Assembly (NCBI GenBank): GCA_958295815.1
Contig: OY282374.1
Location: 514,856 to 578,855 of the forward strand
DNA: 64,000 nucleotides
Origin: Candidatus Poribacteria bacterium
GTDB taxonomy: Bacteria; Poribacteria; WGA-4E; WGA-3G
Direction of reading: 5' to 3'
The translations under genes and the position numbers were made by a program. Shown in pieces: positions 506 through 62,861 of the stretch (positions are counted from its first letter, which is position 1; every line of letters starts with the position of its first letter). The notes beneath the pieces were generated by a model that had not been told where the DNA came from, ran no database searches, and was given only the letters and a program-made list of their open reading frames with translations.

Positions 506-1435
506 ATGCGATACATCGCTTCCACAATCTTGACAGGTAGGAGCGATCTCCGAATCGCGACTTCTTCACCCAACCATCGATCGCCGCTAAGTTTAAAAAA
601 CCTAGCTGCACGGGCAGAAATCTGTGTCTTATGTCTTTTCCTTGCAGTTGTTGGATGTGTTGGTACAAAGACGATTGAGTTGTCCCCCGCAACTCGTGCC
701 GAATTAGATACTATCCTCAACACACTGCAGGTGAGATACGATCTGACCGGTTCCTTGAAAATTATTCGGATGATGGTAACGATTGAGGAGGGCGAGCAGA
801 GCGAGGAGCTTCGCGAATTGTTATGGTATAAAAAATCGGAGAACGGTGGGGAATTGCTCCATATCCAAGCGTTAGGACCGATCAATGAACCGCGCGGGAT
901 CGCAATCGCCAATCAGGACAAAAACCAGTTCATGCTTCGTCTTCTGAACGAGCAGAAAGCGTACCTCGGTCCACTGTCCGACGGTGCTTTGCAGGAGATT
1001 TTCGGCATCGATCTACGCGTGTCGGATGTGTTAAGTGCCATTTTCGCGAATCCGTTTCTTGACGGACGCACTGATGAATTCATATCGGTTGAAAGTTCTG
1101 GGGCGAAATTTATCATTGCGCGTCCGGGTATCCAAGAGGGACATGTGGAGACCATTACGCTCTTTATCCGAGAGGAGGAACCGCGGGTTGCCGAGTGGCA
1201 TATCCACGATGAGAACGGAACGCTTCAGCAACGCGCCGCTTTCTCTGACTATCGCGAAGTCGGTGGCATTCTCCGAGCTCACAAGGTCGAAATTGAACGT
1301 CCGCTTGACGAGACACGAGTCGTTGTGAAAATTGCCAAAGTCGAACTGAATGTTGAGATTAAAGATAGTAAGTTCGATGTTGAACCCTTTCTGGGTGAAG
1401 ATATCGAAATTATCCCGTTGTCGGAGTTGGAGTAG
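506..1435 (+). CDS. LolB/LolA-like (DUF4292-like) lipoprotein; start codon uncertain
   Basis: hydrophobic h-region ending in lipobox-like VVGC; sits directly upstream of ispE as lolB does in lolB-ispE operons. Confidence 0.45.
   Translation: MRYIASTILTGRSDLRIATSSPNHRSPLSLKNLAARAEICVLCLFLAVVGCVGTKTIELSPATRAELDTILNTLQVRYDLTGSLKIIRMMVTIEEGEQSEELRELLWYKKSENGGELLHIQALGPINEPRGIAIANQDKNQFMLRLLNEQKAYLGPLSDGALQEIFGIDLRVSDVLSAIFANPFLDGRTDEFISVESSGAKFIIARPGIQEGHVETITLFIREEEPRVAEWHIHDENGTLQQRAAFSDYREVGGILRAHKVEIERPLDETRVVVKIAKVELNVEIKDSKFDVEPFLGEDIEIIPLSELE
538..562. repeat. solo degenerate copy of hairpin repeat family A (taggagCgatctccgaatcGcgac)
   Basis: 22/24 identity to the 26-nt unit found in arrays at 19.1, 35.9 and 62.7 kb; hairpin retained by compensatory change (gcgat/atcgc). 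Confidence 0.5.
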
Positions 1436-5769: not shown

Positions 5770-5801
5770 GATAGCAGGACATTGGATATTAAATTTTTCA
5801 G

Positions 5802-27314: not shown

Positions 27315-27429
27315 CACTGGTAAAACAACTCGATGTAAATCCTGCCTTTTCCTTGTTTTTCCCCTCATTTTCTGTTAAAATTAACGTGAGTTTGATAAAT
27401 ATTTAGAGTAGGCGCATTTCCGATTAAAG

Positions 27430-27470
27430 TCCCCCTGATAAGGGGGATTTAGGGGGTTAGATCCCTAAAA
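27430..27470 (+). terminator. two adjacent GC hairpins (tcccccT-gata-Aggggga, tttaggg-ggttagatc-ccctaaa) downstream of cydB; possible terminator
   Basis: inverted repeats read from sequence; no clean U-tract. Confidence 0.3.
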
Positions 27471-35283: not shown

Positions 35284-35742
35284 TTAGTCTGCGGCTTCAG
35301 CCAGTTCTACAAGCACTGGCGATTCAACGCGGATAGCGTCTTTGATACAGACCTCTTCGCACAACTTGCAGCCGACACAATCCTTGGGTTTAACCAATTC
35401 GCAGATACCGAAGAAACTTTCGGCGTGTTCACCGGTGTCTGGATCTTTGAGTTCAAGGCAATCCCATGGGCAAATATGGACACAAAAGTCGCATCCAGAG
35501 CATAGTTCTTCGTAGATAACGGCGATAGGTCGGTGTGTTGGGCGGCGGATGAACTTGCACACCTCGCCGAATTGATCTCGGATTGCCTCGACGGGGCAGA
35601 CCATCCCGCACGCGCTGCAGTCAATACAAATGTTTGGATCGATGATGTGCAGCATGTTCCTATCGCCAGTTATTGCGTCAACTGGGCAGTTGGTTAAACA
35701 TGCCATACATCCGATACATTCGTCAGTGATATAGTATGCCAT
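35284..35742 (-). CDS. poly-4Fe-4S ferredoxin-domain protein (four CxxCxxCxxxCP-type clusters)
   Basis: four Cys clusters CIGCMAC..CP, CIDCSAC..CP, CSGCDFC..CP, CVGCKLC; start at ATG 35742 with RBS. Confidence 0.7.
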   Translation of the reverse strand: MAYYITDECIGCMACLTNCPVDAITGDRNMLHIIDPNICIDCSACGMVCPVEAIRDQFGEVCKFIRRPTHRPIAVIYEELCSGCDFCVHICPWDCLELKDPDTGEHAESFFGICELVKPKDCVGCKLCEEVCIKDAIRVESPVLVELAEAAD

Positions 35743-35866
35743 AAGTTCTTTTCCTGTTCGCTGGCGAGATTTCCTAACCTCGCAGACCTTCATGAAATTC
35801 TCAATGCATATATTTTATCACAATCTTTACAAATTGTCAAGTGTGTTTTGATTTGCCATAATTTTC

Positions 35867-36051
35867 CTGTAGGAGGGATCTCCGAATCCCGATATTAGCT
35901 TCTCTGTAGGAGGGATCTCCGAATCCCGATACATCTTTAGCTTTCCTGTAGGAGGGATCTCCGAATCCCGATACATCTTTAGCTTTCCTGTAGGAGGGAT
36001 CTCCGAATCCCGATATTAGCTTCTCTGTAGGAGGGATCTCCGAATCCCGAT
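35867..36051. repeat. five-copy tandem array of hairpin repeat family A (ctgtaggagggatctccgaatcccgat), with 11-15-nt linkers arranged A-B-B-A
   Basis: exact 27-nt unit five times; linkers attagcttct / acatctttagctttc / acatctttagctttc / attagcttct. Confidence 0.9.
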
Positions 36052-36187
36052 AACTGACAACCGAAAATCGAAGACTGGAAACTACACCGTTGACATTCTG
36101 GCGGTCGTAGACTATAATAACAGTGGTATAGCCCTATGAGAGGGTGCTTTCAAACCATATAAATTATAAAAGGATAAGGTGATTCTG

Positions 36188-36958
36188 ATGGATTTAGGAT
36201 TAAAAGACAAAGTGGTGGTTGTAACAGGTGCGAGTCGCGGGATCGGACGTGCGATCGCACACAGTTTCGCTGATGAAGCGGCGCGCCTGAGTATTTGTGG
36301 CAGAACCGAAGATACACTCCAAAGCGTAACGAGTGAACTCACGGCAAAAGGCGCACAAGTCTTCGCAAAACTCACGGATGTCACAGATACAGGTCAAGTT
36401 GAGGCATTTGTAACGGAAACGCTGGAAACGTATGGCAGGATTGATGTTGTTGTGAACAACGTAGGTGGTAGCCGATGGACCCCTTTAGAAGATATTTCGG
36501 ATACCGAGTGGCACGAGATTTTCGATCTGAACCTGGTTTCTGCAGCACGGGTTAACCAACTCGCGATCCCTGAGATGAAGAAGCAAGGCAGTGGCGTGAT
36601 TCTGATGATTACTTCCATCTACGGCAGGGAGGGTGGTGGACACATTACATATAACGCCGCGAAAGCCGCCGAAATCAGTATGACAAAATCGTTGGCAAGA
36701 GAACTCGCACCGGACAATATCCGTGTAAATAGTGTCGCACCCGGTTCGATTCTCTTTCCGGGCGGCGGTTGGGCGCGCCGGATAGCAGCGGATCCAGAAG
36801 CGATGGAAGCCTTTGTGAAGAGCGATATGCCGTTGGGTAGGTTTGGGAAACCTGAAGAGATTGCGAATGTTGTTGTCTTTCTTGCCTCCGAACGGGCGAG
36901 TCTTGTAACGGGTGCCTGTGTGAACGTTGATGGGTGCCAGACGCACTCAAATATTTGA
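36188..36958 (+). CDS. SDR-family oxidoreductase (3-oxoacyl-ACP reductase-like)
   Basis: TGASRGIGRAIA Rossmann motif and downstream Y..xK catalytic region. Confidence 0.85.
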   Translation: MDLGLKDKVVVVTGASRGIGRAIAHSFADEAARLSICGRTEDTLQSVTSELTAKGAQVFAKLTDVTDTGQVEAFVTETLETYGRIDVVVNNVGGSRWTPLEDISDTEWHEIFDLNLVSAARVNQLAIPEMKKQGSGVILMITSIYGREGGGHITYNAAKAAEISMTKSLARELAPDNIRVNSVAPGSILFPGGGWARRIAADPEAMEAFVKSDMPLGRFGKPEEIANVVVFLASERASLVTGACVNVDGCQTHSNI

Positions 36959-36982
36959 TGTGTCTTGTAGGTAGGTTGGTAT

Positions 36983-37028
36983 GCGGATTATCTCAGCTCA
37001 TTTTTTGTGAGATTATCCGCATTTTTTC
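36983..37028 (+). terminator. rho-independent terminator after the SDR gene
   Basis: perfect 13-bp inverted repeat gcggattatctca/tgagattatccgc followed by attttttcc. Confidence 0.65.
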
Positions 37029-37230
37029 CTTAACATCCTACAACTTTTGAAACTACCGTAGTAGGACTCGTAAACAACTTCTATTTTTCCAGTTGTAGTC
37101 GTTTTTCAGAAAAAAACGGCTCTTCTGTTTATCTTGATAGTGTACGCTTGTGTTCCGGTCATGCCGTGGTAAAGGATACCTTAAGATTTCAGTAGCAATT
37201 TCAACATAAACACTGCTTGTTGTTCGGCAT

Positions 37231-37245
37231 TGGCACGAAACTTGC
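37231..37245 (+). promoter_or_regulatory. sigma-54 (-24/-12) promoter TGGCAC-gaaac-TTGC
   Basis: exact consensus read from sequence. Confidence 0.55.
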
Positions 37246-37406
37246 CTAAGTACTAACATAGTTTGAACACAATGTTCTTGCTAACGAAACTCTAAGTGCT
37301 AACTTTACCTAAAAGGATGACTGAAAATGAAGATTATCTACGTTTTACTCACAACGAATAAGAAATCTTCGACGTAATGTAATTGGGCTGTTACAGAATA
37401 AATATA

Positions 37407-37482
37407 GGGAAACCAGTCTATGTACTGTTCTTGCAGAGAGGATATGTCTTTGCAAGATGAAACGTAGAACAGGTTTCCCTTT
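37407..37482 (+). other. long imperfect hairpin (gggaaacc...ggtttccc) followed by ttt; candidate terminator of a sigma-54-dependent small transcript
   Basis: 8-bp outer stem plus nested inner stems (ctgttc/gaacag, cttgca/tgcaag), T-run after 3' arm. Confidence 0.35.
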
Positions 37483-37797
37483 AGCATTTAAAAGGGGACT
37501 TTCTGTTTTATGGGATCTTGAGCGCGATGTGGAGTATTGCTTGGGTGGATACGTCAAAGTAGTGGAGTTAGCTGCGTCAATAAGACGTATTGCGTCAAAA
37601 TAGCGTGGTTAAAAATCGGTTTGAATTCGTAGCAATAATGGGGTTACGAGCGAGACTTTTATTCTTCAGTTTCAGGAAAACATCTCTTCTTTTTTTCCTG
37701 AATCGAGTGTTTACTTGTGTTTTAGGCACATCATAGTCGAAAAGACGTTTACGATTGTAACAGTTTTGACACAAATATTATGCTATGTTCAAGGGAA

Positions 37798-37812
37798 TGG
37801 CACGAAATTTGC
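37798..37812 (+). promoter_or_regulatory. sigma-54 promoter TGGCAC-gaaat-TTGC about 110 nt upstream of ORF 37925
   Basis: exact consensus read from sequence. Confidence 0.55.
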
Positions 37813-37924
37813 TCTATCAGTTTTATAGTATCATTATGAGAAACCATATACAACGTAGTTAACGTTGGTCAATCATCAGGAACAATGTCACATACTGGAT
37901 CTCTGAATCACAATTCTATAGAGT

Positions 37925-38701
37925 ATGATACCTGGTATAATACTATCGCCAATCCTTAATGAAGAGGGTAGGAGCAGGTGGGCAAAAATCTGCCTATTCC
38001 ACATTCACAGTGAGGTGAAACAAGTGAGAATTGTCATATATACAGCCGGTATTCTTGTCGTCTTAGCGGTTGCATGGACACTGTATCTTAACCTCGGCTT
38101 AAAAGACTTTGAAGCAAGGCTTTCACAGGTTCCTGCGTCTCCCACAACTCCACAGGAGACCTCGCAGGAGACAAAAGTTAGTGAGAGTGATACACAGCCT
38201 GAAACGGAAGTATCCAGTGATGTTTTGGAATTTGATGAGGCTGCTACTGTTGAAGATGTTTACCCGAAAATGGAATCAGAAGAGGATCAAGACTCCCTCG
38301 TTATCTGGACAGACTCGGATACCGAATCGTCCATTGATGCCGAAACAGCGATCGTTGAAGCACCTTTAACTCTTAACGAGGGCACACCGGTAGCAACAGT
38401 TGTGGGTCCCTGTGGTGAAATCTGCGAACCGTCGGAATCGAGTGTAGATATTCTAAGTCTCTCCAAGAATGAGCAGCGTGAGTTCTTCCGTGAAGGCTTG
38501 ATAAGGCGGTTCGGTGATATTCCTGAAGTCCACGTTTTCATTCATTACATGGAACTTGCACACAGTCATCAAACGATTTCAGAGAAAGAGGCTCTGGAAA
38601 ATGCCCGCGCGATTGCCACTCTGTTTCCAAATGAGGCAAACAAAAGACATCTCCAAGAAATGGAGTTGCATGTGGCGTCAAGTAGGGCAACGCGGAGATA
38701 G
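37925..38701 (+). CDS. hypothetical membrane-anchored acidic protein (single TM, Ser/Thr/Glu/Asp-rich extracytoplasmic region); start uncertain
   Basis: TM helix IVIYTAGILVVLAVAWTLYL followed by a low-complexity acidic region; no recognisable domain. Confidence 0.45.
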   Translation: MIPGIILSPILNEEGRSRWAKICLFHIHSEVKQVRIVIYTAGILVVLAVAWTLYLNLGLKDFEARLSQVPASPTTPQETSQETKVSESDTQPETEVSSDVLEFDEAATVEDVYPKMESEEDQDSLVIWTDSDTESSIDAETAIVEAPLTLNEGTPVATVVGPCGEICEPSESSVDILSLSKNEQREFFREGLIRRFGDIPEVHVFIHYMELAHSHQTISEKEALENARAIATLFPNEANKRHLQEMELHVASSRATRR

Positions 38702-38748
38702 CGATTCTTTTGATAAATAGCTTGTCAAAACAATTAATGCAAACAAAA

Positions 38749-38781
38749 ACGACAGGTTGCTCAATCTGTCGTTTTTGTTTT
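38749..38781 (+). terminator. rho-independent terminator (acgacag-gttgctcaat-ctgtcgt + ttttgtttt)
   Basis: 7-bp stem plus U-tract after ORF 37925-38701. Confidence 0.6.
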
Positions 38782-38954
38782 GAAAATTCGTCTAAGTAAG
38801 AAAATACGATTGCCATAGCGGCGGATGTCCCTGCGCCGAAACCTGAATCGAAAGTGAGCTGTTGGAGCGGAATTTTCAAAATGCGAAAGAAATGCGGATC
38901 TTCAAATCCAAACGGTTGATGTTACATACCATCAGAAATCCAACGGAGAGTCTG

Positions 38955-39671
38955 ATGAAATTAGTTATTATTCTAGGGATGTTTATTTTTTTGACTTTCT
39001 CTGCCTCAGCAGGGACGTTTGTAGAGACATTCGATGGTGGGGATTTGGATGAATGGCGGGAAATTATCTTGTTAGATCTTAAGATTAAGCCTGGGACTTG
39101 GGAAATTATTGACGGTGAACTTCACGGGACAATGCGTCATATAGGGCTGCCACGTCTGCTGACGACGGGTGATGAAAAGTGGCGTAATTACACCATTGAA
39201 GTTGATGTATTCCCTCTCGAAAAACACAGTCCCGGAAATATTGGAATAGCTGCGCGAATTCAGGGAACTGTCGGGATAATTAGTCTTATTGGGGATTATG
39301 CCTTCCCATTTCCGGCGAACCCCAACCCTGGACTAACAGTGACATGTTTTGGCGGTGATTTTCACGACAATATTCTCCACTTATTTGGGACTGAAGTTAG
39401 CCCATTGTTGGAATTAGGAACATGGTCTACTATGAAACTCCAGGTGAATGAAGATGTGTTTACGCTTTGGCTGAATGGTGAGCAAGTTTTGCTAGCGAGA
39501 GATGACACCTTTGACTTTTCTACAGGTCGAGTAGGTTTGGTTCTCACAGGTTATACGGTGAAGTTCGATGATTTGGTGATCACCGGCGATGGCATCCCAA
39601 ATAAGGGAAAATTATCAGTAACCCCGACAGACAAACTCGCGACAATGTGGAGTAGTTTGAAGCAGTTTTAA
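38955..39671 (+). CDS. secreted DUF1080-type (concanavalin-like / 3-keto-disaccharide hydrolase-like) protein with conserved C-terminal tail ...DKLATMWSSLKQF
   Basis: signal peptide MKLVIILGMFIFLTFSASA, WEIIDGELHG DUF1080-like motif; paralog of 41851-42597. Confidence 0.6.
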   Translation: MKLVIILGMFIFLTFSASAGTFVETFDGGDLDEWREIILLDLKIKPGTWEIIDGELHGTMRHIGLPRLLTTGDEKWRNYTIEVDVFPLEKHSPGNIGIAARIQGTVGIISLIGDYAFPFPANPNPGLTVTCFGGDFHDNILHLFGTEVSPLLELGTWSTMKLQVNEDVFTLWLNGEQVLLARDDTFDFSTGRVGLVLTGYTVKFDDLVITGDGIPNKGKLSVTPTDKLATMWSSLKQF

Positions 39672-39693
39672 ACTAAAAGAGTGAGGGATATCC

Positions 39694-40254
39694 ATGCTAA
39701 AATCTCCTGCTAAAATCCATCGTGTCCACAAATTTATACACAACAATAAGTTGTGTATCGCCGATCTAGATCGGTTCCGGTTGATAGAAATTAATCGGGT
39801 TGCGTGGGATGTCATCAATCTGAACGCAATGCAACATATCAACACATCACCTTTTTTTCTTATTAACGGCGATGTCCTTCTTGAGAACTTTTCACTACGA
39901 GAAATGTTAAAATGCTTTGATCAAAAGATGATGGGACTCCTGCTAAGTGTACGAGTAGATGATATTCGTCCTTACGGCGAAATCGTATCAGATAGCGATG
40001 GGAGAGTCCAAGCATTTCGTGAAAAACAGCCAATCTGCCGAGCTGGATACATTAACGGTGGCGTGTATCTCTTCAATCGAACTGTCATTGACGCGTTTCC
40101 TAAACACCGAGAGCATTTCTCTATAGAACGAGAGGTCTTCCCATACCTATCCAATCTTTACGCTTTGAAGACCGAAGCGAGTTGGATTGATATTGGAGTT
40201 CCAGAGCGATTAGCGTATGCGAGACAACACTTTCAAAACGGAGCCTGTCGATGA
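39694..40254 (+). CDS. sugar-phosphate nucleotidyltransferase (ManC/GMPP-like) lacking the N-terminal GxGTRL nucleotide-binding segment; possible truncated gene
   Basis: similarity begins about 50 residues into the family (FFLINGDVL ... GGVYLFNRTVID ... WIDIGVP); only 22 bp separate it from the upstream gene. Confidence 0.45.
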   Translation: MLKSPAKIHRVHKFIHNNKLCIADLDRFRLIEINRVAWDVINLNAMQHINTSPFFLINGDVLLENFSLREMLKCFDQKMMGLLLSVRVDDIRPYGEIVSDSDGRVQAFREKQPICRAGYINGGVYLFNRTVIDAFPKHREHFSIEREVFPYLSNLYALKTEASWIDIGVPERLAYARQHFQNGACR

Positions 40255-41720
40255 ATCCCGACATCTTTCGAGCATACGACATTCGCGGCATTCTTGGCGT
40301 GGACTTTGAACCGAAAGATTTTTATCGAATTGCCCGTGCTTTCGCTGCTCGATTTCAACCGAAAATTGTCGCCTTAGGACACGATGTCCGAGAAAGTTCT
40401 TCTCATCTATGGCAACAGGTCGCAGACGGACTCCGAGACTCGGGTGTTGACGTGCTTGATCTCGGTCAGATTTCAACCGATATGCTCTATTTCGCTGTAG
40501 TGCAATATCAGACGGATGGAGGTATTATCATTTCCGCCTCCCATAATCCAGCAGCTTATAATGGCATGAAACTGGTCCGTCAGCATGCTGTACCACTTTC
40601 TTCAGAAACCGGACTCTTTGATGTACGCGATGCCGTTGAAAGCAAAGACCAATTTGAAAAACATATCGCTAGCAAACGCGGCAATCTTCGGACTGCCCTG
40701 TTTTTGGACGCATACCTTGCACATCTGCGGTCTTTTGTGAATTTGCAGCAGCTTTTGAACAGGCGAATTGTCATCAATGCTAATGGTGGACTTGCTGGGC
40801 ATATTGCCGAATGCCTGTTAACATCAACACAGATTCAGATCTGTAAACGGCTATTTTGCAAGCCTGATGGAACATTCACCAACATTCCAGAGGATCGCCC
40901 CGACCCGCTACGCCCCGAGAATCGAAAATTAACGATAGAGACAGTCAAGCAGACAAGTGCGGATCTGGCGGTCGCATGGGACGTAGATGCAGATAGGTGC
41001 TTTTTTTATGATGAAAATGGAGAATTCGTTGAGGGATGTTACATTACGGCACTGCTCGCGGAATGCCTTCTTCAACAAAAACGAGGTGGAATTGTCATTT
41101 TTGACCCAAGAGCCATTTGGGCAGTGGAGAACTCCGTTACTTCTGCCAATGGCACACCACTTCTCAACCGATGCGGACACTCGTTTATCAAAATCCGCAT
41201 GCGGGAAACTGATGCCCTTTTTGCAGGAGAAACCAGTGGACACTACTATTTCCGTGACAATTTCTATGCTGATAACGGTATGCTCCCCTTTTTGTTTGTA
41301 CTTGAAATCCTCTGTGCAAAGAGGAGTTCACTCGCGGAACTGGTTAACCCTCTCCGAGCGAAATATCCGGTTTCTGGTGAAATCAACTTTGCGTTTGAAA
41401 GTCGTAATCTGATGCATGTTGCGATGAACACAGTCGAGCGTACACTGCACCAATTAGGGAGCCATTTCCACCTTGAAGCCCCTGTTGATGGCATGTCGGT
41501 CCGATTTCTCACAAACCGCCGAAGCGGCAATTTCAGTCGTCCAGAACCCGGCAGCTGGCGGTTCAATCTCCGAGAGTCAAACACTGAACCACTTTTGCGA
41601 TTCAATCTTGAAAACGTTGAGTCTCTCTCTCTTCATGTTGAAAAAACGGAGCAGCTTAGTGAAATGCTGGAGAACCTCGGCGGCAGACGAGAAACAAAAT
41701 TTCGTTGGGAAAATGGATAA
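40251..41720 (+). CDS. phosphomannomutase / phosphoglucomutase (alpha-D-phosphohexomutase)
   Basis: active-site SASHNPAAYNG, metal loop DVDADR, sugar loop GETSGH. Confidence 0.85.
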   Translation: MNPDIFRAYDIRGILGVDFEPKDFYRIARAFAARFQPKIVALGHDVRESSSHLWQQVADGLRDSGVDVLDLGQISTDMLYFAVVQYQTDGGIIISASHNPAAYNGMKLVRQHAVPLSSETGLFDVRDAVESKDQFEKHIASKRGNLRTALFLDAYLAHLRSFVNLQQLLNRRIVINANGGLAGHIAECLLTSTQIQICKRLFCKPDGTFTNIPEDRPDPLRPENRKLTIETVKQTSADLAVAWDVDADRCFFYDENGEFVEGCYITALLAECLLQQKRGGIVIFDPRAIWAVENSVTSANGTPLLNRCGHSFIKIRMRETDALFAGETSGHYYFRDNFYADNGMLPFLFVLEILCAKRSSLAELVNPLRAKYPVSGEINFAFESRNLMHVAMNTVERTLHQLGSHFHLEAPVDGMSVRFLTNRRSGNFSRPEPGSWRFNLRESNTEPLLRFNLENVESLSLHVEKTEQLSEMLENLGGRRETKFRWENG

Positions 41721-41850
41721 TTCCGTGAAATGAACCAAGAGAACTTCTCCTAGTAATGGTTTTGAATTATCTCATTATGCCAGGAAGTTCTCATTCTACG
41801 GTGTTGTTCTATTCTGAGGACTTACTTTGAACTCACGTCATAGGAGGATT

Positions 41851-42597
41851 ATGATGAAATCAATTATTATTATCGCCATACTTTTCCTTTTTCCCTTCTG
41901 TACATGGTCAGGCACGTTTCTGGAAACTTTCGATCACGGTGATCTTGAGGGTTGGCAGGAACTTAGTGCCCATGACGCTTTACCCGGTTCATGGGAGATC
42001 ATTGATGGCGAACTTCAGGCAATAATTCCTGGGGCATCTCGTTATCTCATAACGGGTGATGAGACATGGAAAGATTACAGTATCCAGGTTGATGTGATGC
42101 CTCTTGAAAAACCAGGTCCCGGAAATATCTCGATTCTCGCCCGTGTTAAAGGAAATTGGGCAGTTGATTGTGGGATTACCGACCTGATTTTCAATGATCC
42201 TGAATCAAAAGTGGTATGTTCTAGCCTTGATGTTCACGCAAATGAAGGCACCGTTCTGCACATTGAACCTTATCCGGCTTTAAGATCAAATAAATGGTCT
42301 AGACTGAAATTAAGTGTCAATGGAGATCACTTTAGTTTCTGGATAAATGAGAAGAAGATTGTGGAAACGGGAGGAGAGTTTGTCCTCATACAAGACGGTC
42401 GGGAATTTCAACTAAAGACAATGGATCTCTCACGCCACCCGGTAGACACAGGCGGGGCAGGTTTTGGTCTCGCGTATCATACAGCGAGATTCGATAATAT
42501 TACGATCATCGGCGATAGTATACCTGACAAAGGTAGATTACCAGTATCGCCTCAAGCAAACCTATCGACAATGTGGAGTAGTTTGAAGCAGTTTTAG
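41851..42597 (+). CDS. secreted DUF1080-type protein, paralog of 38955-39671, C-terminal tail ...NLSTMWSSLKQF
   Basis: RBS aggagg, signal peptide, SWEIIDGELQ motif, identical last 9 residues to the paralog. Confidence 0.6.
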   Translation: MMKSIIIIAILFLFPFCTWSGTFLETFDHGDLEGWQELSAHDALPGSWEIIDGELQAIIPGASRYLITGDETWKDYSIQVDVMPLEKPGPGNISILARVKGNWAVDCGITDLIFNDPESKVVCSSLDVHANEGTVLHIEPYPALRSNKWSRLKLSVNGDHFSFWINEKKIVETGGEFVLIQDGREFQLKTMDLSRHPVDTGGAGFGLAYHTARFDNITIIGDSIPDKGRLPVSPQANLSTMWSSLKQF

Positions 42598-42755
42598 AAG
42601 GTTGCCATTAAGAATGTCTCTGCTGGAATCAGATCTACATCAGCTGGGTAAATTCCACCACAATGATAGTTTATACATTGTTTAAATTTGAATATGCCTT
42701 TGGAGAAAAATAGGGTTACCGAGTTTTAAAACGACTTTGGATTGGAATAAATCAA

Positions 42756-43925
42756 ATGAGTTTCAGTGTTTTTGAACTATTAACGTACGAAAGAATGATT
42801 TTTTTCGCAATTTTGAGCTGTGGACTTTATGCCAGTTACACTGATTTCCGCTACGGGAAAATCGCTAACGGTTACACCGTGTTTTTAATCGGCTTTGGTA
42901 TAATCTGTCAAATGGTATTCGTAAGTGAAGGAGACATCACCTGGATACACAGTTGTGTTACCCTTTTCGGTGGATTAGGTATCTCTTTTGTATTGTTTTA
43001 TACCGGGATATGGGCAGCTGGGGATGCTAAACTGTTTTGGGGTATCAGTTTACTGATGCCACCGAGTGCTTTTACCCGTACCCCGGAGACGCAATTTTAT
43101 CCGTTGATCTTGATGGTGAATATTTTTCTCCTTTTTTTGGTCTATATCACATTACAGTCCGTCTATAAATTGACCTTTCAACAGCAGCGGATGCTGATTG
43201 TCAAAGGTTTTGTTGCACAAGCAAAGCAATTTCCGAAACGCCTTCTTCAGGTGCTTTCTTATGTCGGTGTAAGTGGACTGGCTTTTTATATTCCCGCACA
43301 CCTTGGTATAGAGTTAGATGTCGCAATCCGCATAGCTCTATTCATAGCGATTGCTTTTGCTTTCAATAGAGTAGTTGAAAAGTACATCCCTCAGAAATAC
43401 AGAATCACATTTCATATTCCGTTTCTCCTTTTAGCTCTCTTTTTGGCTATCCCTTCGCTAATTCAACTCGGTATTTTTATCGTCATTATCTTTGTTTTTC
43501 CATGGTTTCTAATCATGTTTGACTCTGTAGTCCGTTCCGTTTTTACAAAACAGGTTCCTATTGAAAGTCTTCGTCCTAACATGATCCCTGCGGAACGCAT
43601 CGTCAAAATTGAAGGACAAAACATGGACGATAAATACGTGAAAACTCCTGCAGGTTTTGCAAATCCGGCGCGAGATAGCATTATTGTGGATGTTTCATCT
43701 GAAGGGTTAACATCGCCCCAGGTTGAGCACTTGCGCCAACTTGCTGCAGAAGGTAGTTTGAAGGAATACGAAAATAGACTGCTTATTCAGGAAAAAATCC
43801 CATTTGCTTTGATGATTGTTTTGGGCGGCTTAGTGACACTACCTGCAAAGGGGATTGCTTATTCGTTTTTTCAGAGTGCAGAGATGCATCAGGTTTTGGA
43901 GAGAATAGGTTCGTTCTTTTCTTGA
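42756..43925 (+). CDS. A24-family (CpaA/TadV-type prepilin peptidase-like) aspartyl protease domain fused to a long C-terminal membrane/soluble extension
   Basis: YTDFRYGKIAN (first catalytic Asp motif D-x-R-x-x-x-I-P/A-N) and WAAGDAKLF (GGGDVKL-like second Asp); 389 aa versus about 170 aa for CpaA. Confidence 0.5.
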   Translation: MSFSVFELLTYERMIFFAILSCGLYASYTDFRYGKIANGYTVFLIGFGIICQMVFVSEGDITWIHSCVTLFGGLGISFVLFYTGIWAAGDAKLFWGISLLMPPSAFTRTPETQFYPLILMVNIFLLFLVYITLQSVYKLTFQQQRMLIVKGFVAQAKQFPKRLLQVLSYVGVSGLAFYIPAHLGIELDVAIRIALFIAIAFAFNRVVEKYIPQKYRITFHIPFLLLALFLAIPSLIQLGIFIVIIFVFPWFLIMFDSVVRSVFTKQVPIESLRPNMIPAERIVKIEGQNMDDKYVKTPAGFANPARDSIIVDVSSEGLTSPQVEHLRQLAAEGSLKEYENRLLIQEKIPFALMIVLGGLVTLPAKGIAYSFFQSAEMHQVLERIGSFFS

Positions 43926-44771
43926 TTAAAAAATAGCTGGAGTAATCGAGAATATTTACCTTACGTTACTCTCTGGTGTTTTTTGCCTTTGAGTTCTTGG
44001 GTATCCGTACTCTACAAATCTTATCATGTACGGATGATATATAATGACTGTCCCTCCTTGTATACATATCCTCCGTACCTACCACTTGTCACTCACCTTA
44101 CATATTTCCTTCTATTAATTGTGGATTCCACAAGGAAATGCCGATATACAAATCAATAGTGGAACAACTTTGGAGTATATGGGCAATTGACTTGCTATGC
44201 AATCCTTTCTATGCGTGAAATTTTTGCAGAATTTTATGGTATATAGTGGTAATTTTTGCGTGCTAATATCGGAAATGAATTACAAATGAATTTCATTATA
44301 ATGTTTTCAAGAAAAGATAATTACTTTGTTTCTTTTTGATAAACCCAGTGTGTGTCTGTGTTTTAGGGGAGTCTAAGCAATAAATATATACCATTATATG
44401 ATTTTTATATAAATAATGTATATTTATATATCAATTGGCACTAAATTTGCTTGTCTTAATATAGCAGTTCTCACTAAATTTGCATGCTTTTATTAACAAG
44501 GGCGTACTTTGATTTTAATTGAATAAAGTTGTTATCGACTGTGTGTAACTTTCTGAGGAATATATTTGCGGTGTTGATTGCTGATAGTTATCAGTGAAGT
44601 TGTTTTCGTCATAGATATTCAACTGGAAACAACGGTTTCTGACTCACCACTCATACGCGCTAAGTCCTTGAATCAAACTTACATTCGCAAGGAGCGCGCA
44701 TTGCAACGTGACAGGCAGTGAATTTCTTGAACCTGTTCAAAAGCATTAGATGAATCGGGTAGTGTGTAAAA
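43926..44771. other. about 850-bp AT-rich non-coding island (A/T tracts, sigma-54 promoter) upstream of a sigma-54 activator gene
   Basis: no credible ORF; very low GC; direct repeat cactaaatttgc x2. Confidence 0.6.
44436..44450 (+). promoter_or_regulatory. sigma-54 promoter TGGCAC-taaat-TTGC
   Basis: exact consensus; a degenerate second copy (ctcactaaatttgc) lies 40 nt downstream. Confidence 0.55.
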
Positions 44772-46031
44772 ATGAACGACCGAATCAGAGAAGAGAATAC
44801 CTCTAATGAAGTACACATTGTTATTATTAGTGATGTGCCTGATACAGCAAGAAAATTAAAGGACGAGCTTGAACAGAACGGATATAAAGTCTCTATTGCT
44901 ACCGATCGCGACACACAAATCTCGCTCCGCGCTGGCGATGCAATCTTGCGGGTGACCTACGAGGATAACGCTAACTTGCTAATTTCAGGACAACAAAGAG
45001 ATAGCGTGTTTGCGATTGTGGAAGAGGCTCAGTCTGCGCTGAGAAGAGATAAATTTTCAGGGGATTACGGAGAAATTATTGGAGAAAGTTCCCAAATTTT
45101 TGAGGTTCTACAGCAAATTGAAGATCTTGCAGCTACGCCGTTGAGAGTCCTAATTTCTGGTGAAACCGGAACAGGTAAGGGGGTGGTCGCGCGTGCCCTG
45201 CATGAAAATAGTGGCAGATCGGGTGAAATGGTTTCTATCAACTGTGCAGCAATACCAGTAAACTTACTGGAAAGTGAGTTGTTTGGACATGAGAGAGGCG
45301 CATTTACAAGTGCCGATGCCCGACGTATTGGTAGGTTTGAAAGGGCTCACAATGGGACGCTGTTTCTTGATGAAATCGTTGAGATGCCGCTCTCCATGCA
45401 ACCGAAGTTGTTACGCGCAATTGAGGAAGGCGAAATTGAACGCGTTGGTGGTGAAAAGCCAATTGCAGTGAATGTCCGAATTGTGGCGGCTACCAACAAG
45501 GATCTTGCGCGAGCTGTTAAAGATGGTATATTTCGTGAAGACCTCTATTATCGATTGAATGTTGCCTCTATATCTCTACCGATGTTATCAGAGAGAAAGG
45601 AGGATATCTATGTGTTAGTGTCGCATTTCCTTGAGAAATATCGACGATTTTTCAGTCCCTCAATTTTGCAAATCGCTAAAAGTACGCGAGCTCTCCTTGA
45701 AACCTATCCATGGCCCGGGAATGTGCGAGAGTTGGAGAATGCTATTGAGAGAGCTTCTTACCTTATTAAAAAAGGAGTGCTCTTACCGGAGCACCTACCA
45801 GAAGAGATTACGGCGTACCAAAGACAACCTGTGGATGTCTCCAAAGAGATTTCTACATTTGAAGACGAGCAAAAGGTGAGCGTGCCTCTTGGAACGAAGT
45901 TTGACGCAATGGAAGAAGCTTTCATTCGTACCACTTTGGAATGGCATGATGGGAATCGAACAAAAACGGCGGAGACACTCGGGATTGGTATACGAACGTT
46001 ACAGAGGAAGTTGAAAAAATATAACGCTTAA
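44772..46031 (+). CDS. sigma-54-dependent transcriptional activator (bEBP; AAA+ with GAFTSA variant of GAFTGA, C-terminal Fis-type HTH), atypical N-terminal domain
   Basis: Walker A GETGTGKG, GAFTSA, ESELFGHE, C-terminal HTH RTKTAETLGIGIRTLQRKLK. Confidence 0.85.
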   Translation: MNDRIREENTSNEVHIVIISDVPDTARKLKDELEQNGYKVSIATDRDTQISLRAGDAILRVTYEDNANLLISGQQRDSVFAIVEEAQSALRRDKFSGDYGEIIGESSQIFEVLQQIEDLAATPLRVLISGETGTGKGVVARALHENSGRSGEMVSINCAAIPVNLLESELFGHERGAFTSADARRIGRFERAHNGTLFLDEIVEMPLSMQPKLLRAIEEGEIERVGGEKPIAVNVRIVAATNKDLARAVKDGIFREDLYYRLNVASISLPMLSERKEDIYVLVSHFLEKYRRFFSPSILQIAKSTRALLETYPWPGNVRELENAIERASYLIKKGVLLPEHLPEEITAYQRQPVDVSKEISTFEDEQKVSVPLGTKFDAMEEAFIRTTLEWHDGNRTKTAETLGIGIRTLQRKLKKYNA

Positions 46032-46134
46032 TTTCGGTTATCAGAGAATATGATACTTTTCTCTTTGTCCAAATTTTCCCTTGTTTAAACAGAAGCAACA
46101 TGTTAAAATGGTGTGGATGTAGTAACTGAGGAGA

Positions 46135-53323: not shown

Positions 53324-54289
53324 ATGAAAGCTGGGCAAATTGTCGCACCACATCAAATTGAGATTGTTGATATAGAACAACCGAATCTTGCCGATTATCC
53401 CGATGGTACAGTGAAGATAAAAACTGCTCATAGTGCCATCTGTGGCACTGATATGCCGTCGTTCGTCCTTGAACACCCGGCGGAAAGTTATCCACTTCAA
53501 CCAGGGCTTTCGATTCACGAGGCAATCGGCGTTGTCACAGATAGTAAATCGGACAGATTCAAAGCGGGGGACTCCGTCCTCGCACTGCCACGCTACATCG
53601 GTGGACTTTCGGAATACTTCCTGTCGGATGAGAGCGTCACGATGCCGTTGACGGATTTCCCACGGAAGGACTGCATCCTAATGTCTCAACCGCTTGGCAC
53701 TGTTGTCTGGGCGTGTCGGAAGCTGCCGAATCTGCTCAATCTTGATGTGGTTGTTGTCGGGCAGGGCCCCATGGGGCTTCTCTTTACGCACATGTTGAGC
53801 AATCTCGGTGCGAAGACGGTGATCACAACCGACGTTGTTGACTTCCGACTTACCGTTTCCAAGAAGATGCGTGCCACACACACAGTTAATGTTGAAAAGC
53901 AAGATCCAGTTGCTGTTGTTGAGAAAATTACGGAGGGCAGAATGGCGGATCTGGTTATTGAGGTGGTTGGACACCAGACAGAGACGATCAATGATTGCCT
54001 CCAGCTGCTAAAGCGCAGTGGAACGCTCCTCGCCTTCGGTGTGCCAGACGACCAGATTTACGATTTCCATTTCGCTGACTTCTTCCGAAAAAATATCAAC
54101 TTCATCGGATCCGTCGGACCAGATGCCCCAAACGACTTCCCACTGGCGATGGATATGATTGCTCAGGGTCGTTTGGATGTATCGCCGATTATCACGCATC
54201 ATCTGCCTTTTACAGAGGCGCAACTCGGATTTGAAATGGCTCTGAACAGGAAGCATGAAGCGATCAAGATTATTTTCGACTACGAATAG
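53324..54289 (+). CDS. zinc-dependent medium-chain alcohol dehydrogenase family
   Basis: CGTD catalytic zinc motif, VVGQGPMGLL Rossmann. Confidence 0.8.
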   Translation: MKAGQIVAPHQIEIVDIEQPNLADYPDGTVKIKTAHSAICGTDMPSFVLEHPAESYPLQPGLSIHEAIGVVTDSKSDRFKAGDSVLALPRYIGGLSEYFLSDESVTMPLTDFPRKDCILMSQPLGTVVWACRKLPNLLNLDVVVVGQGPMGLLFTHMLSNLGAKTVITTDVVDFRLTVSKKMRATHTVNVEKQDPVAVVEKITEGRMADLVIEVVGHQTETINDCLQLLKRSGTLLAFGVPDDQIYDFHFADFFRKNINFIGSVGPDAPNDFPLAMDMIAQGRLDVSPIITHHLPFTEAQLGFEMALNRKHEAIKIIFDYE

Positions 54290-54415
54290 TAGCAGGCACA
54301 CTCCGCTGTGCCGTCACATAGTAGCAGGCACACTCCGCTGTGCCGTAAAAGTAGTAGGCACACTCCGTTCTGCCGTCACATAGTAGTAGGCACACTCCGC
54401 TGTGCCGTTCACAAA
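54286..54415. repeat. four tandem copies of hairpin repeat family B (tagtagcaggcacactccgctgtgccgtcaca) between convergent genes
   Basis: 32-nt unit x4, each with hairpin ggcaca-ctccgc-tgtgcc (third copy mutated to gttctgcc). Confidence 0.85.
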
Positions 54416-55458
54416 GGCAATTCAATCGGACGTCCCTCACGGCTTGATTGGTAGATAGCGAGGATAATTTCCACAGCTTTGCGTCCTTCGCGTCCGTCAA
54501 CGAGGTGCGAGGCATCTTTCTCAAGTCCGTTAATTAGGTTTTCCATCTGCCGCCGATGATTTGCATGGTTTATAGCACGTGGGTCGGAGGCACCGCCGCC
54601 GGTATCCGTTTTTTGTGCGAATTGTTCTCGGATTTCCGCATCTTCAGGAAGTTCTGGGTCAAATTCCCAGGTCACGATGTCCTCTTCGGCTAAGACGACA
54701 GTCCCGTGTGTGCCGGAGATTTCAGTCTTCTTGAGCATGCCGGGGTAAGCGGCAGTCGTGCCTTCGATGACACCGAGTGCGCCGTTTTCAAACCGAAGTG
54801 CAGCAACAGCAGCGTCTTCGACTTCGATCCGTTCGTGCGCCAGTGTATCGGTAAAGGCTTGGACAGATTTGACGGGACCCATGAAATACTGGAGTAGGTC
54901 AATGGCGTGAATAGATTGGTTCATGAGCGCGCCGCCGCCATCGAGGTCCCACGTGCCGCGCCAACCGCCGCTATCGTAGTATTCTTGGGAACGATACCAT
55001 TTGATGTAAGCATCGCCTAAGGTGAGTTTACCGAACCGACCGCTCTCAATTGTGGATTTAACGAGTTGTGTGCTTTCGGTGAAACGAGAATTAAAGATGG
55101 CGCATAATCGGACACCCGCCGCGTCACAGGCTTCGATGATCGCATCGCACCGTGGTAAGGTGATTTCCAGCGGTTTTTCGACGATGACGTGTTTACCGGC
55201 TTCTGCGGCAGCGACAGCAGGTTCCAGGTGCGCACCGCTCGGCGTACAGATGCAAACGATGTCCAGATCGTCACGTTTGAGCATTTCCATATAGTCGATG
55301 TAGCTGTCAACGTTGTATCGGTCGGTGAGCCGTTTGGCATTTTCAGCGTTTCTTGAACTGACTGCGACGAGTTGACCGTGTTCTAATTCAGAAATTGCGG
55401 CGGAGTGAAAATCTGAAATCATTCCACATCCGATAATACCGAATCCGTAAGTCTTCAT
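54409..55458 (-). CDS. Gfo/Idh/MocA family oxidoreductase
   Basis: MKTYGFGIIGCGMIS Rossmann N-terminus. Confidence 0.85.
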   Translation of the reverse strand: MKTYGFGIIGCGMISDFHSAAISELEHGQLVAVSSRNAENAKRLTDRYNVDSYIDYMEMLKRDDLDIVCICTPSGAHLEPAVAAAEAGKHVIVEKPLEITLPRCDAIIEACDAAGVRLCAIFNSRFTESTQLVKSTIESGRFGKLTLGDAYIKWYRSQEYYDSGGWRGTWDLDGGGALMNQSIHAIDLLQYFMGPVKSVQAFTDTLAHERIEVEDAAVAALRFENGALGVIEGTTAAYPGMLKKTEISGTHGTVVLAEEDIVTWEFDPELPEDAEIREQFAQKTDTGGGASDPRAINHANHRRQMENLINGLEKDASHLVDGREGRKAVEIILAIYQSSREGRPIELPL

Positions 55459-61529: not shown

Positions 61530-62564
61530 TTACTTGCCGGTTACCTTATTTTTCAGTTCTACCCACTCTTCATCGCTGAGTTTTGGGGGCCATGCGATCC
61601 GCTCGCCGATGAGTGCGGAGCGATACGCCGCCATAATCACGTCGAATCCAAGCATCGCGAACTCCAATCTGTTGCGATGCGGTTGGTTTTCGTCATCGAG
61701 CCAAGTTGCGATGGCTTGTGTAAAGTCCCGTTGTCCCTGTTTGTCGTCTTCACCGAAGTGCGTTTTCTCGACGAAGTGGTGTGCCATACCCTCAAGCTGA
61801 TAACCCCATGAACCGTTTTCACGCCACCACATCCTGCCTTTGGTCCCCCAGAAATCGAGGTTACACCGTGGATTGCTGCCCGGAAAATCAATAGTTCCAA
61901 ATGCTGTCCGTGCGGATTCAAATAGGACGCGTGCACCGTTCTCAAATGTATAGATCGCCATCAAATTTTCAGGACATTGGCGGTGTGGAACATCATAAAT
62001 CTCGGCACCCTCAACGGCACCCCAGACGTGTGTAATTGGGATGTCTTTAAGCGCAAACAGTACAACGTCCATCAGGTGGGTATCCATGTCGGTGATGTCG
62101 CCTTCGGTACAGGCACGAATGAAGTGTATATCGCCGAGGCTATCGTCGGCAAAAAACTCAAGCAGTTTTTCAGCGAAGGGTAGGTAACGTCGTTGATGGT
62201 TGACGATAATCTTCAAACCTGTTTTCTCGTACGCTGCGGTGAGTGCGTCTGCTTCGCGAGGTCTGAGTGCGAGCGGTTTCTCTATCACCAGTGCCTTAAC
62301 ACCCGCTTCGGCGGCAGGCTCTACCCAAATATGTCGTGGCACCGTCGGCTCTGTTACGGCGTGGATAATATCGGGTTTTTCCATCTCCAACATCTCAGTG
62401 TAGTCTGTATACCCCGGGACGTTGAGTTCTTCTACTGCTGCATTTAACCGTTCCTCGTCAATTTCGCAGATGGCAATTACCTTCATATTTTCGATGCCTT
62501 CATAACGTCGGGCATGGTGTACACCGCGTCTTCCGCCAACGATCCCAGTTCGATACATCGCCAT
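61530..62564 (-). CDS. Gfo/Idh/MocA family oxidoreductase
   Basis: Rossmann N-terminus GIVGGRRG..., C-terminal GFO_IDH_MocA_C-like region. Confidence 0.75.
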   Translation of the reverse strand: MAMYRTGIVGGRRGVHHARRYEGIENMKVIAICEIDEERLNAAVEELNVPGYTDYTEMLEMEKPDIIHAVTEPTVPRHIWVEPAAEAGVKALVIEKPLALRPREADALTAAYEKTGLKIIVNHQRRYLPFAEKLLEFFADDSLGDIHFIRACTEGDITDMDTHLMDVVLFALKDIPITHVWGAVEGAEIYDVPHRQCPENLMAIYTFENGARVLFESARTAFGTIDFPGSNPRCNLDFWGTKGRMWWRENGSWGYQLEGMAHHFVEKTHFGEDDKQGQRDFTQAIATWLDDENQPHRNRLEFAMLGFDVIMAAYRSALIGERIAWPPKLSDEEWVELKNKVTGK

Positions 62565-62680
62565 AATATGCCTCCCAGTTGAAGCGTGCAGTTACAGGTT
62601 TCCGAAACTTGTCATTATATTAACACGCTCGCAAATTTGTGTCAATAGACTGTTTTTGTATCTCAGGGCATTCAGCTTTT

Positions 62681-62808
62681 CTGTAGGAGGGATCTCCGAA
62701 TCCCGACTCTTCTTTCTGTAGGAGGGATCTCCGAATCCCGACTCTTCTTTCTGTAGGAGGATCTCCGAATCCCGACTCTTCTTTCTGTAGGAGGATCTCC
62801 GAATCCCG
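62681..62808. repeat. four-copy tandem array of hairpin repeat family A with 9-nt linker ctcttcttt (last two units carry a 1-nt deletion)
   Basis: ctgtaggagggatctccgaatcccgactcttcttt repeated. Confidence 0.9.
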
Positions 62809-62861
62809 ATTCTGGTCTAAAGTGGGCAGCATACCATAAAGTCGAATTCCAACAAAAAAGC

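Follow-up and report, generated by a model that had tools for sequence, protein, structure and literature searches.

The five-copy hairpin array at positions 35867-36051 of a 64-kb stretch of Candidatus Poribacteria DNA (hereafter the window, meaning the whole stretch that was analysed) is most probably a locally amplified module of the repetitive extragenic palindromic (REP) type, belonging to a decayed ISAs1-type MITE (miniature inverted-repeat transposable element). On this reading, to which we assign a probability of about 0.7, the array is selfish repeat DNA and no purpose-built device. All its 27-nucleotide (nt) units are REP-type hairpins with a GTAG tag (GTAG-GA-stem5-loop6-stem5-GAY). 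Such a hairpin forms an internal module of a small non-coding transposon of Candidatus Poribacteria, here named MITE-A, whose ends and target duplications carry the signature of ISAs1-family insertion sequences (ISs). The object is of a known kind, found in a new combination and in a little-studied phylum, and its promoter-phased position is the potentially surprising part. A sequence-only reading of the same DNA had implied a stand-alone protein-binding or regulatory array, which is unsupported given that the unit is an internal module of a MITE-like element. It had also named a match to a known IS or MITE terminal repeat as grounds for abandoning its view; what was found comes close to this, the unit being no terminal repeat but an inner part of such an element.

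A GTAG-tagged hairpin inside a small transposon

The array and the remains of the element around it comprise the following parts.

35867-35893, 35904-35930, 35946-35972, 35988-36014 and 36025-36051, plus strand: five identical 27-nt units CTGTAGGAGGGATCTCCGAATCCCGAT, located as exact matches
35853-35866, plus strand: decayed left-end module TTGCCATAATTTTC, after which the first unit opens with CT; the counterpart is CAAGGTCATTAAATTTTCCT in the syntenic locus L092 and TAGGGTCATTTAGTTCTCCT in the family consensus
36052-36089, plus strand: decayed right-hand module AACTGACAACCGAAAATCGAAGACTGGAAACTACACCG (family counterpart ...GAAAACCGAAAACTAAATAGCCCTA), directly adjoining the -35 hexamer of the promoter of a short-chain dehydrogenase/reductase (SDR) gene

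Every unit reads CT-GTAG-GA-GGGAT-CTCCGA-ATCCC-GAT, and no chance match to it is expected (100 dinucleotide-preserving shuffles). The five exact copies bear out the five-copy array noticed in the sequence-only reading, and Tandem Repeats Finder reported 35867-36051 with periods of 42 and 79. Linkers A (ATTAGCTTCT) and B (ACATCTTTAGCTTTC) measure 10 and 15 nt, correcting the 11-15 nt given earlier, and succeed one another as 10/15/15/10 nt. They are variants of one sequence, B being A plus CATCT with a CT/TC swap. The earlier judgement that this is no clustered regularly interspaced short palindromic repeat (CRISPR) array stands: the linkers are short, mutually related and each used twice, and the ten flanking genes are ordinary metabolic genes by Pfam (cas genes were not screened for).

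Species-representative genomes, one assembly standing for one species, were scanned for the 22-nt core GTAGGAGGGATCTCCGAATCCC of the unit, and the loci fetched carry L-numbers below. As they were picked by exact core match, part of the core identity among them is ascertainment. The core occurs in at least 116 stretches and, among the matches listed, in ~39 assemblies, all but one of which are titled Candidatus or uncultured Poribacteria (sponge symbionts). Sites fall outside predicted open reading frames (ORFs) in 118 of 129 cases; the 107 intergenic sites with callable neighbours divide into 49 divergent, 52 co-directional and 6 convergent. Arrays hold one to five units, the single-unit form accounting for 122 of the 129 sites. 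Nothing specific on REPs or MITEs of Poribacteria was found in the literature searched.

The tag GTAG is invariant in 137-138 of 138 aligned copies; after it come GA, a stem of 5 bp, a loop of 6 nt and the tail GAY. Folded as RNA, the unit gives a 5-bp/6-nt hairpin of -6.3 kcal/mol, an energy that shuffled sequences equal (z = 0.17); what supports the hairpin is thus not folding energy but the compensated variants seen among the copies. The stems GGGAA/TTCCC (8-9 copies), GCGAT/ATCGC (2-3 copies), GCGAC/GTCGC and GCAAT/ATTGC all preserve pairing, and an unpaired change was seen in only two copies. These variants back the small hairpin drawn within the unit by the earlier reading, and the alternative-stem families carry the GTAG tag too. 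The supposed Shine-Dalgarno-like TAGGAGG is instead the GTAG tag plus the GA dinucleotide typical of GTAG-type REPs (PMC3733652), and no convincing reading frame was found after the units at 35867-36051. The only ORF of at least 20 amino acids (aa) touching the array is 49 aa long and on the opposite strand.

In GTAG-1/2 REPs a GTAG left unpaired precedes a dinucleotide, then a stem-loop and lastly a 3-nt tail that is conserved, some GTAG REPs being embedded in longer palindromes and their clusters tandemly reiterated (Di Nocera et al. 2013, PMC3733652). The poribacterial units resemble GTAG-tagged REPs (PMC3733652; Nunvar et al. 2010, PMC2817692) in tag, dinucleotide, short stem-loop and 3-nt tail. 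Moreover, both show stem variants that are compensated, G-T pairs, multiple families within a genome, extragenic spread at high copy number, clusters that reiterate flanking DNA in tandem and embedding in longer palindromes (the Anabaena GTAG-15 case). The poribacterial unit differs in its stem, which is at the short extreme (5 bp), and in its conserved 6-nt loop. Its copies run head to tail, whereas described GTAG families prefer inverted dimers and head-to-tail arrays are rare among them (PMC3733652). Nearly half of the poribacterial sites lie in divergent promoter regions rather than at 3' ends, and about one copy in two forms part of a DDE-type MITE. Finally, no REP-associated tyrosine transposase (RAYT) gene was found for these units by tblastn with E. 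coli RayT and a scan for the HUH...Y..NP motif over the window and the 116 loci (0.98 Mb, <1% of the genomes concerned).

The hairpins might instead act as RNA, either as a CsrB-like decoy for a protein or ribosomes or as a terminator, an insulator or an mRNA-stabilising hairpin. GGAGG/GGA motifs are present in every unit, and a terminator-like hairpin lies 50 nt after the array at 62681. A partner hairpin (GGCGTGATC-TCCC-GGTTGCGCC) precedes a TTTT and contains three G-T pairs, each with its G-T asymmetry confined to the GTAG strand; in GTAG REPs such pairs were regarded by Di Nocera et al. as a hint of RNA function (PMC3733652). However, the GGA motifs sit in the tag and stem and not in the loop (CTCCGA), the unit folds no better than shuffled sequence, and the promoters flanking the array point away from it, the sole inward candidate (35834-35862, 10/12) being the mirror of the ferredoxin -35. 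Orientation to co-directional genes is near random (31 sense vs 21 antisense), and start codons stand at no fixed distance from the units. At the gathering score Rfam returned for the window only the tRNA at 2334-2405, and even at E = 1 no match fell on the arrays. We therefore regard an RNA role of the array as very unlikely. A CsrB/Rsm-type decoy small RNA in particular was rejected, the 35867 locus having neither an inward promoter of its own nor any terminator found 3' of 35867-36051, and no GGA in its loops. The G-T asymmetry keeps an RNA role alive for the hairpins in general.

The surroundings of the unit reveal the transposon. Across 138-143 unit copies aligned with their flanks, conservation extends 20 nt leftwards of the unit (TAGGG(T/G)CATTTAGTTYTYCT) and about 8 nt rightwards. 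The left module ...CATTTAGTTYTYCT stands at a fixed 5 nt before GTAG in 66/143 copies, and an inverted copy of the end, AACTAAAT(A/G)(G/A)CCCTA, lies 2-130 nt downstream in 51 copies. The inverted ends are 15 nt long (TAGGGTCATTTAGTT...AACTAAATAGCCCTA) and show the terminal pattern [TC]AGGG(T/C)(C/T)ATTTAGTT in inverted pairs. Paired ends yield size classes of 64, 82, 88, 102 and 122 nt, the last being the commonest, within an overall range of 64-250 nt, and no ORF was found in MITE-A copies. In the 122-nt form the left end is succeeded, 5' to 3', by YTYCT, the unit, ATCTCACT, another GTAG hairpin (GTAGGCGTGATCTCCCGGTTGCGCC), TTTTCAAACAAAATGGTTAAAAAGCCGAA and then the right end; a single strand of it forms one long hairpin (-40 kcal/mol, z = -3.5). 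The family is a mosaic inside: other copies hold different GTAG hairpins, CTGAYNG heptad-like runs or nested small elements, and where copies were selected through their ends, the hairpins are variant forms or different ones.

Direct repeats of 9-10 bp, at least 80% identical and in many cases perfect, flank 20 of 42 end pairs (for example TGTTTATGG, GCTAACCCA, CCGGCATAC, ACACTGTAGG and AAATGTTCTC). Perfect 9- or 10-bp repeats are present in L010, L020, L023, L030, L033, L037, L043, L060, L076, L080, L097, L103, L106 and L116. In addition, one filled/empty pair was recovered, the flanks of the copy in L024 being contiguous in L070. Another small element, with ends TATGGTGAATT..., recurs as an insertion within the left end of MITE-A, at the TA of CATT-TA-GTT (L103 2577-2799, L024 6322-6570; also L038, L073, L081, L082, L099 and L109). 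Either this site is a hot spot, or the composite has spread as a unit.

The MITE-A family is a mosaic in the manner of bacterial interspersed mosaic elements (BIMEs), BOX and BrickBuilt elements. With BOX and BrickBuilt (PMC4596501, PMC10969869) it has in common a leader, a variable number of short internal repeats, a tail and small inverted ends, a strictly intergenic position and a repeat number that varies by locus and strain; partial forms without leader or tail are common, and small elements are nested within (PMC10969869). Unlike theirs, the MITE-A repeat is a GTAG hairpin with linkers and not a spacer-less 23-nt or 45-nt unit, clear 9-10 bp duplications link it to a named IS family, and the promoters are not internal but lie outside, a fixed distance away. 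The Correia elements (CREE/NEMIS) of Neisseria are likewise small and very abundant, with inverted ends, beside genes and tied to promoters, and their transcripts fold into long hairpins. They carry promoter hexamers and duplicate TA (PMC10969869), in contrast to MITE-A, where the promoter pre-exists and the duplication is 9-10 bp.

A plain BIME-like REP cluster made by a RAYT, with MITE ends nearby only by coincidence, would account for the full GTAG-1/2 REP format of the unit and for the coexistence of several families with different stems. It would also fit a second-family array at 54286, which lies between convergent genes like a classic REP, and the 66/143 units (46%) without a recognisable end module nearby. 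The latter indicate that the hairpin occurs outside the MITE as well, and may spread there; such units are decayed elements, as in the window, or else hairpins that spread independently. Against such a cluster stand the left-end module fixed 5 nt from GTAG, the linkers in the window, which copy the inner part of that module, the rarity of head-to-tail arrays in described GTAG families and the lack of a RAYT homologue in the 0.98 Mb (a small part of each genome). A RAYT-made cluster is possible for the origin of the hairpin, yet it leaves the fixed left-end junction and the linkers unexplained, and we consider it unlikely for the array. Candidates for making or exchanging the GTAG hairpins are a RAYT-type enzyme and recombination between copies. 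A weaker suggestion is that the GTAG REP hairpins are exchangeable cargo that a DDE-type MITE carries within it. The fusion of a REP-type hairpin and a DDE-type MITE in one mosaic bears on how REPs originate and spread where a RAYT is not evident.

ISAs1-family signature and local growth of the array

ISAs1-family ISs have terminal repeats that start with CAGGG and generate 10-bp duplications (PMC11946415). The 40 metagenomic and 8 plasmid ISAs1-family ISs inspected here all have [CT]AGGG ends, and most have perfect 10-bp duplications. With (C/T)AGGG ends and 9-10 bp duplications, MITE-A therefore agrees with the family in both respects. Moreover, a poribacterial member of the family was found in L109 (282-1538; 1257 nt, ends TAGGGCAATCGCAT..., 9-bp duplication), whose transposase matches NCBIfam NF033564 with 411 bits and is 38% identical to E. 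coli YhhI. The ends of this IS share with MITE-A the terminal TAGGG and two further positions. MITE-A and ISAs1 ISs thus have in common (C/T)AGGG ends, 9-10 bp duplications and a family member in a poribacterial genome, together with ends 18-19 nt from outward -35 hexamers (see below). They differ in that MITE-A is non-coding and only 64-250 nt long, and its ends depart from those of every inspected IS beyond about nine bases. We know of no described ISAs1-derived MITE. No relatives of the ISAs1 transposase were found in viral contigs. Two smaller observations concern the L109 IS: an inward TTGACA ~28 nt from its right end (1500-1540) is a likely transposase promoter, and the first two bases of an adjacent MITE end fall within its 9-bp duplication, CTTTGGTTA.

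The IS630 family was rejected as the autonomous partner, as it duplicates TA where MITE-A duplicates 9-10 bp, and as the one such IS seen has its own inner ends and is nested. This IS630-family IS (L113 2745-4007), with a 398-aa transposase (NCBIfam NF033545), lies between MITE-A ends, in the loop of a GTAG hairpin (GTAGGCGCGGTT...AACCGCGCC) inside a MITE copy. Its 40-nt inverted ends, ATGAAGATTAAATAATTAATTCGGTAATA, also bound a separate small element (L088 2691-2838, L113 360-394 and L033 1652-1679). These cases suggest that hairpin loops serve as insertion sites for a second transposon family.

Local expansion of the array is indicated by comparison with L092, which is syntenic with the window (flanks ~80% identical). 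It has a single unit and a better-preserved left end where the window has five units, and its left-end module is ~10 nt longer. Likewise, L008 has three units against one in its ortholog L016. Boundaries of insertion could not be drawn from two further ortholog comparisons, L015 vs window being too diverged and the alignment of L039 vs L009 not usable. Array periods are 37/42 nt at 35867, 34-35 at 62681, 50 at 19084, 60 in L013 and 33 in L048; as the linkers differ between these arrays, each arose in place.

The linkers themselves point to the repeating block. The 15-nt linker plus CT (ACATCTTTAGCTTTCCT) copies the inner left end (CATTTAGTTCTCCT), preceded by the ACATCT that normally lies 3' of the unit, so the repeating block is a 42-nt segment of the element itself. 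Each period copies the inner left end, the hairpin and ACATCT, plus or minus a 5-nt indel. The A-B-B-A order stressed in the sequence-only reading is real, but it has no palindromic meaning, since the periods simply copy a segment of the element.

We propose the following sequence of events. An ISAs1-family DDE transposase, supplied in trans, would move MITE-A, one copy of which may have landed between the ferredoxin and SDR promoters, its ends decaying afterwards. The 42-nt segment would then have been tandemly duplicated to five units, presumably by slippage or unequal exchange, and one variant with a 5-nt indel would have given rise to the A and B linkers. By itself the array would be ordinary repeat DNA, and knowing so averts its pursuit as a new regulatory or CRISPR-like system. 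For annotators of Poribacteria genomes the analysis provides a defined repeat family, with ends, size classes, modules and duplications.

Spacing between element ends and promoters

The sequence-only reading had placed the array between the divergent promoters of a poly-ferredoxin gene and an SDR gene. This location is upheld by Pfam and by promoter-like sites on both sides.

35284-35793, minus strand: poly-ferredoxin gene (Pfam)
35812-35840, minus strand: promoter-like TTGACA-17-TAAAAT (11/12), pointing from the array to the poly-ferredoxin gene
36090-36118, plus strand: promoter-like TTGACA-17-TATAAT (12/12) for the SDR gene
36179-36958, plus strand: SDR gene (Pfam)

Beyond the SDR gene, ~9 kb of lower G+C content (0.43-0.45) at 36957-46070 is missing from L092, which continues straight into the homologue of window position 46071 onwards. 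The segment is a possible insertion or island.

The distance from element ends to promoters was assessed only by consensus matching (TTGACA at least 5/6; promoter-like sites at least 9/12) over ~180 element ends. An outward TTGACA begins 17-19 nt away from 25 of 97 MITE-A ends, against a background of 0.78 per position (Poisson p = 1e-17), and hexamers in the opposite orientation give no comparable peak. Full promoter-like sites stand at the phased spacing at 28 ends. The sequences between end and hexamer, and between the two hexamers, are unrelated. In 16 of the 42 end pairs (~36 pairs being short elements) a phased promoter is present on exactly one side. The phased promoters are followed by ribosome-binding sites and by functionally unrelated genes (RidA, ModA, ArgJ, HflK, epimerases, a helicase, a ferredoxin and others), and a pathway regulon was rejected on this ground. 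The empty site in L070 already has the promoter, and the insertion point lies ~9 nt upstream of the -35; the 18-19 nt are therefore the sum of the duplication (9-10 bp) and a further 8-9 bp. Two minor peaks, at 8 and 27 nt, may reflect helical phasing.

Autonomous ISAs1-family ISs show the same spacing: in metagenomes (soil, wetland and others) 9 of 66 ends have it (p = 7e-5), perfect duplications being present in several cases, and among plasmid ISs 2 of 16 ends do. The copy at 35867 lies next to the ferredoxin promoter; in L092 the left end is 18 nt from the -35, and the window has lost 10 nt here. Of the window's eight best promoter matches, three stand beside an element and the rest have no such sequence. 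A further candidate, TGTCAAG-N18-TAGGGT as the -35/-10 of a small RNA gene, was rejected for its wrong spacing (19-20 nt). Read on the other strand, TGTCAAG gives a perfect TTGACA, whose own -10 lies 17 nt further out.

We read the spacing as a probable target preference of the transposase clade; selection after insertion may also account for it. A preference for sites that leave the ends 18-19 nt from an outward -35 would account for the place of the array in a divergent promoter region. We tentatively suggest, at somewhat less than even odds, that ISAs1-family transposases and their MITEs choose targets by reading promoters, placing a staggered cut of 9-10 bp at 8-9 bp upstream of the -35 in either orientation and recognising either TTGACA or promoter-bound RNA polymerase (sigma region 4 or the alpha C-terminal domain). 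The spacing shared with autonomous ISAs1 ISs of unrelated environments is what suggests promoter-guided integration in bacteria, and no report of promoter targeting by the ISAs1 or IS630 family was found in the literature searched. Ty3/Ty1 and the Dictyostelium TRE are eukaryotic retroelements that integrate at a fixed distance upstream of Pol III genes, tethered to transcription factors or polymerase subunits. The analogy is one of workings only, namely a set distance from a transcription start signal that keeps genes intact, and unlike for Ty3/Ty1 and TRE no tether is known for the bacterial elements.

If true, such targeting would be a bacterial counterpart of Ty3/Ty1 'safe-haven' integration and would explain why elements pile up in promoter regions without killing genes. 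The elements would then be systematic rewirers of everything upstream of -45, widespread displacement of upstream activator and UP-element sites would be predicted, and a tool for promoter tagging could possibly be derived from them.

The same positions invite a different explanation, in which the array is a cis-regulatory set of protein-binding sites, an operator or enhancer that controls both divergent promoters. It lies between two strong promoter-like sites, the inverted repeat GGGAT-N6-ATCCC resembles a site for a dimer, and the core is identical in many species. Moreover, the fixed 18-19 nt to the -35 would place the end module at about -55 to -69, where activators typically sit. However, the genes behind phased promoters are functionally unrelated, and the stems change in compensated pairs, which half-sites for a DNA-binding protein do not tolerate. 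Unit number varies between orthologs (5 vs 1, 3 vs 1), and units also occur in 3' and convergent regions. Target duplications and the empty site speak of insertion and not of evolution in situ, and the same spacing recurs at unrelated autonomous ISs in other phyla. We give protein binding of this kind very little credence.

Several observations nevertheless weigh against the array being a decayed and amplified MITE-A module. The copy at 35867 has no terminal TAGGG and its right end is barely recognisable; a target duplication could be recognised in none of the decayed copies of the window. The units without end modules described above belong here as well. No autonomous IS with the 15-nt ends of MITE-A was found, and none of 75 metagenomic relatives is an exact partner. 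The ends vary, but many species share an identical 22-nt core, more conservation than simple junk would predict. Lastly, the promoter phasing holds for a minority of ends, as judged by consensus matching.

Other hairpin loci in the window

The window contains 12 units of the main family, and the recurrence of the unit at 19084-19160 and 62681-62810, as well as the diverged solo at 537-561, is real in every instance. Recognisable MITE-A ends occur in the window only at 62664 and 19180. Together with hairpins of two further families, these loci are as follows.

537-561, plus strand: diverged solo unit GTAGGAGCGATCTCCGAATCGCGAC, GTAG-GA-GCGAT-CTCCGA-ATCGC-GAC, 3' of an aminotransferase gene and 5' of a lipoprotein-like gene
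19066-19194, plus strand: second element copy, with decayed left module, two units and right end
19084-19110 and 19134-19160, plus strand: its two units, with one mismatch each, separated by the 23-nt TCTTTCTGACCGCTGACTGCTAC
19180-19194, plus strand: its right end AAACTGGATACCCTA
19214-19242, plus strand: promoter-like TTGACA-17-TATACT (11/12), which begins 19 nt past this right end and points away
54286-54413, plus strand: second family, four units of period 32, GTAG-CA-GGCACA-CTCCGC-TGTGCC-GT, found by a scan for hairpins with a CTCCGN loop
59770-59795, plus strand: third-family solo GTAG-TC-GCGATC-TTGG-GATCGC, just upstream of the start of a minus-strand gene
62640-62645, minus strand: -35-like TTGACA, 18 nt outside the left end of the element at 62664
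62664-62810, plus strand: third element copy, with left end CAGGGCATTCAGCTT at 62664-62678, four units and linker TCTTCTTT
62681-62707, 62716-62742, 62751-62776 and 62785-62810, plus strand: its four units, the last two without one G

In the solo unit at 537-561 the stem change from GGGAT/ATCCC to GCGAT/ATCGC is compensatory. The last two units at 62751-62810 have a 4-bp stem through the loss of one G, and no right end could be recognised for the element at 62664-62810. The nearest TATAAT to the hexamer at 62640-62645 lies at 62614-62619, a non-canonical spacing of 20 nt, upstream of a GFO/IDH/MocA gene (61530-62564).

The second family has the tag GTAG of the main family and a CTCCGN-type loop, with a different stem. 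Its array at 54286-54413 overlaps the stop codons of two convergent genes, a zinc-dependent alcohol dehydrogenase (53324-54289, plus strand) and a GFO/IDH/MocA oxidoreductase (54409-55458, minus strand), and the second-family hairpin is also found inside element copies in L002 and L104.

At all six GTAG-hairpin loci of the window (537, 19086, 35869, 54289, 59770 and 62683) the GTAG strand is the plus strand (p ~0.03), and GC skew is positive over most of the window. A replication-strand bias was rejected, as over the 116 loci the strand does not track local GC skew (54 vs 65).

Further repeats were noticed in passing. CTGAYNG heptad-like runs (e.g. CTGACCGCTGATGGCTGATAACTGAC) to the right of units form a further mosaic module, seen in the window at 19111-19133 and 36052-36070 and also in L011, L021, L029, L031, L084 and L093. 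The sequence AAGTCCCCCTGATAAGGGGGATTTAGGGGGTTAG at 27426-27459 belongs to another poribacterial repeat family, with 97-100% matches in L106, L110, L107, L064 and L010. Finally, the strong promoter-like sites at 2011 and 5802 share the AT-rich sequence ATTAAATTTTTC (1990-2010 and 5781-5801) directly upstream of the -35, which resembles an UP element.

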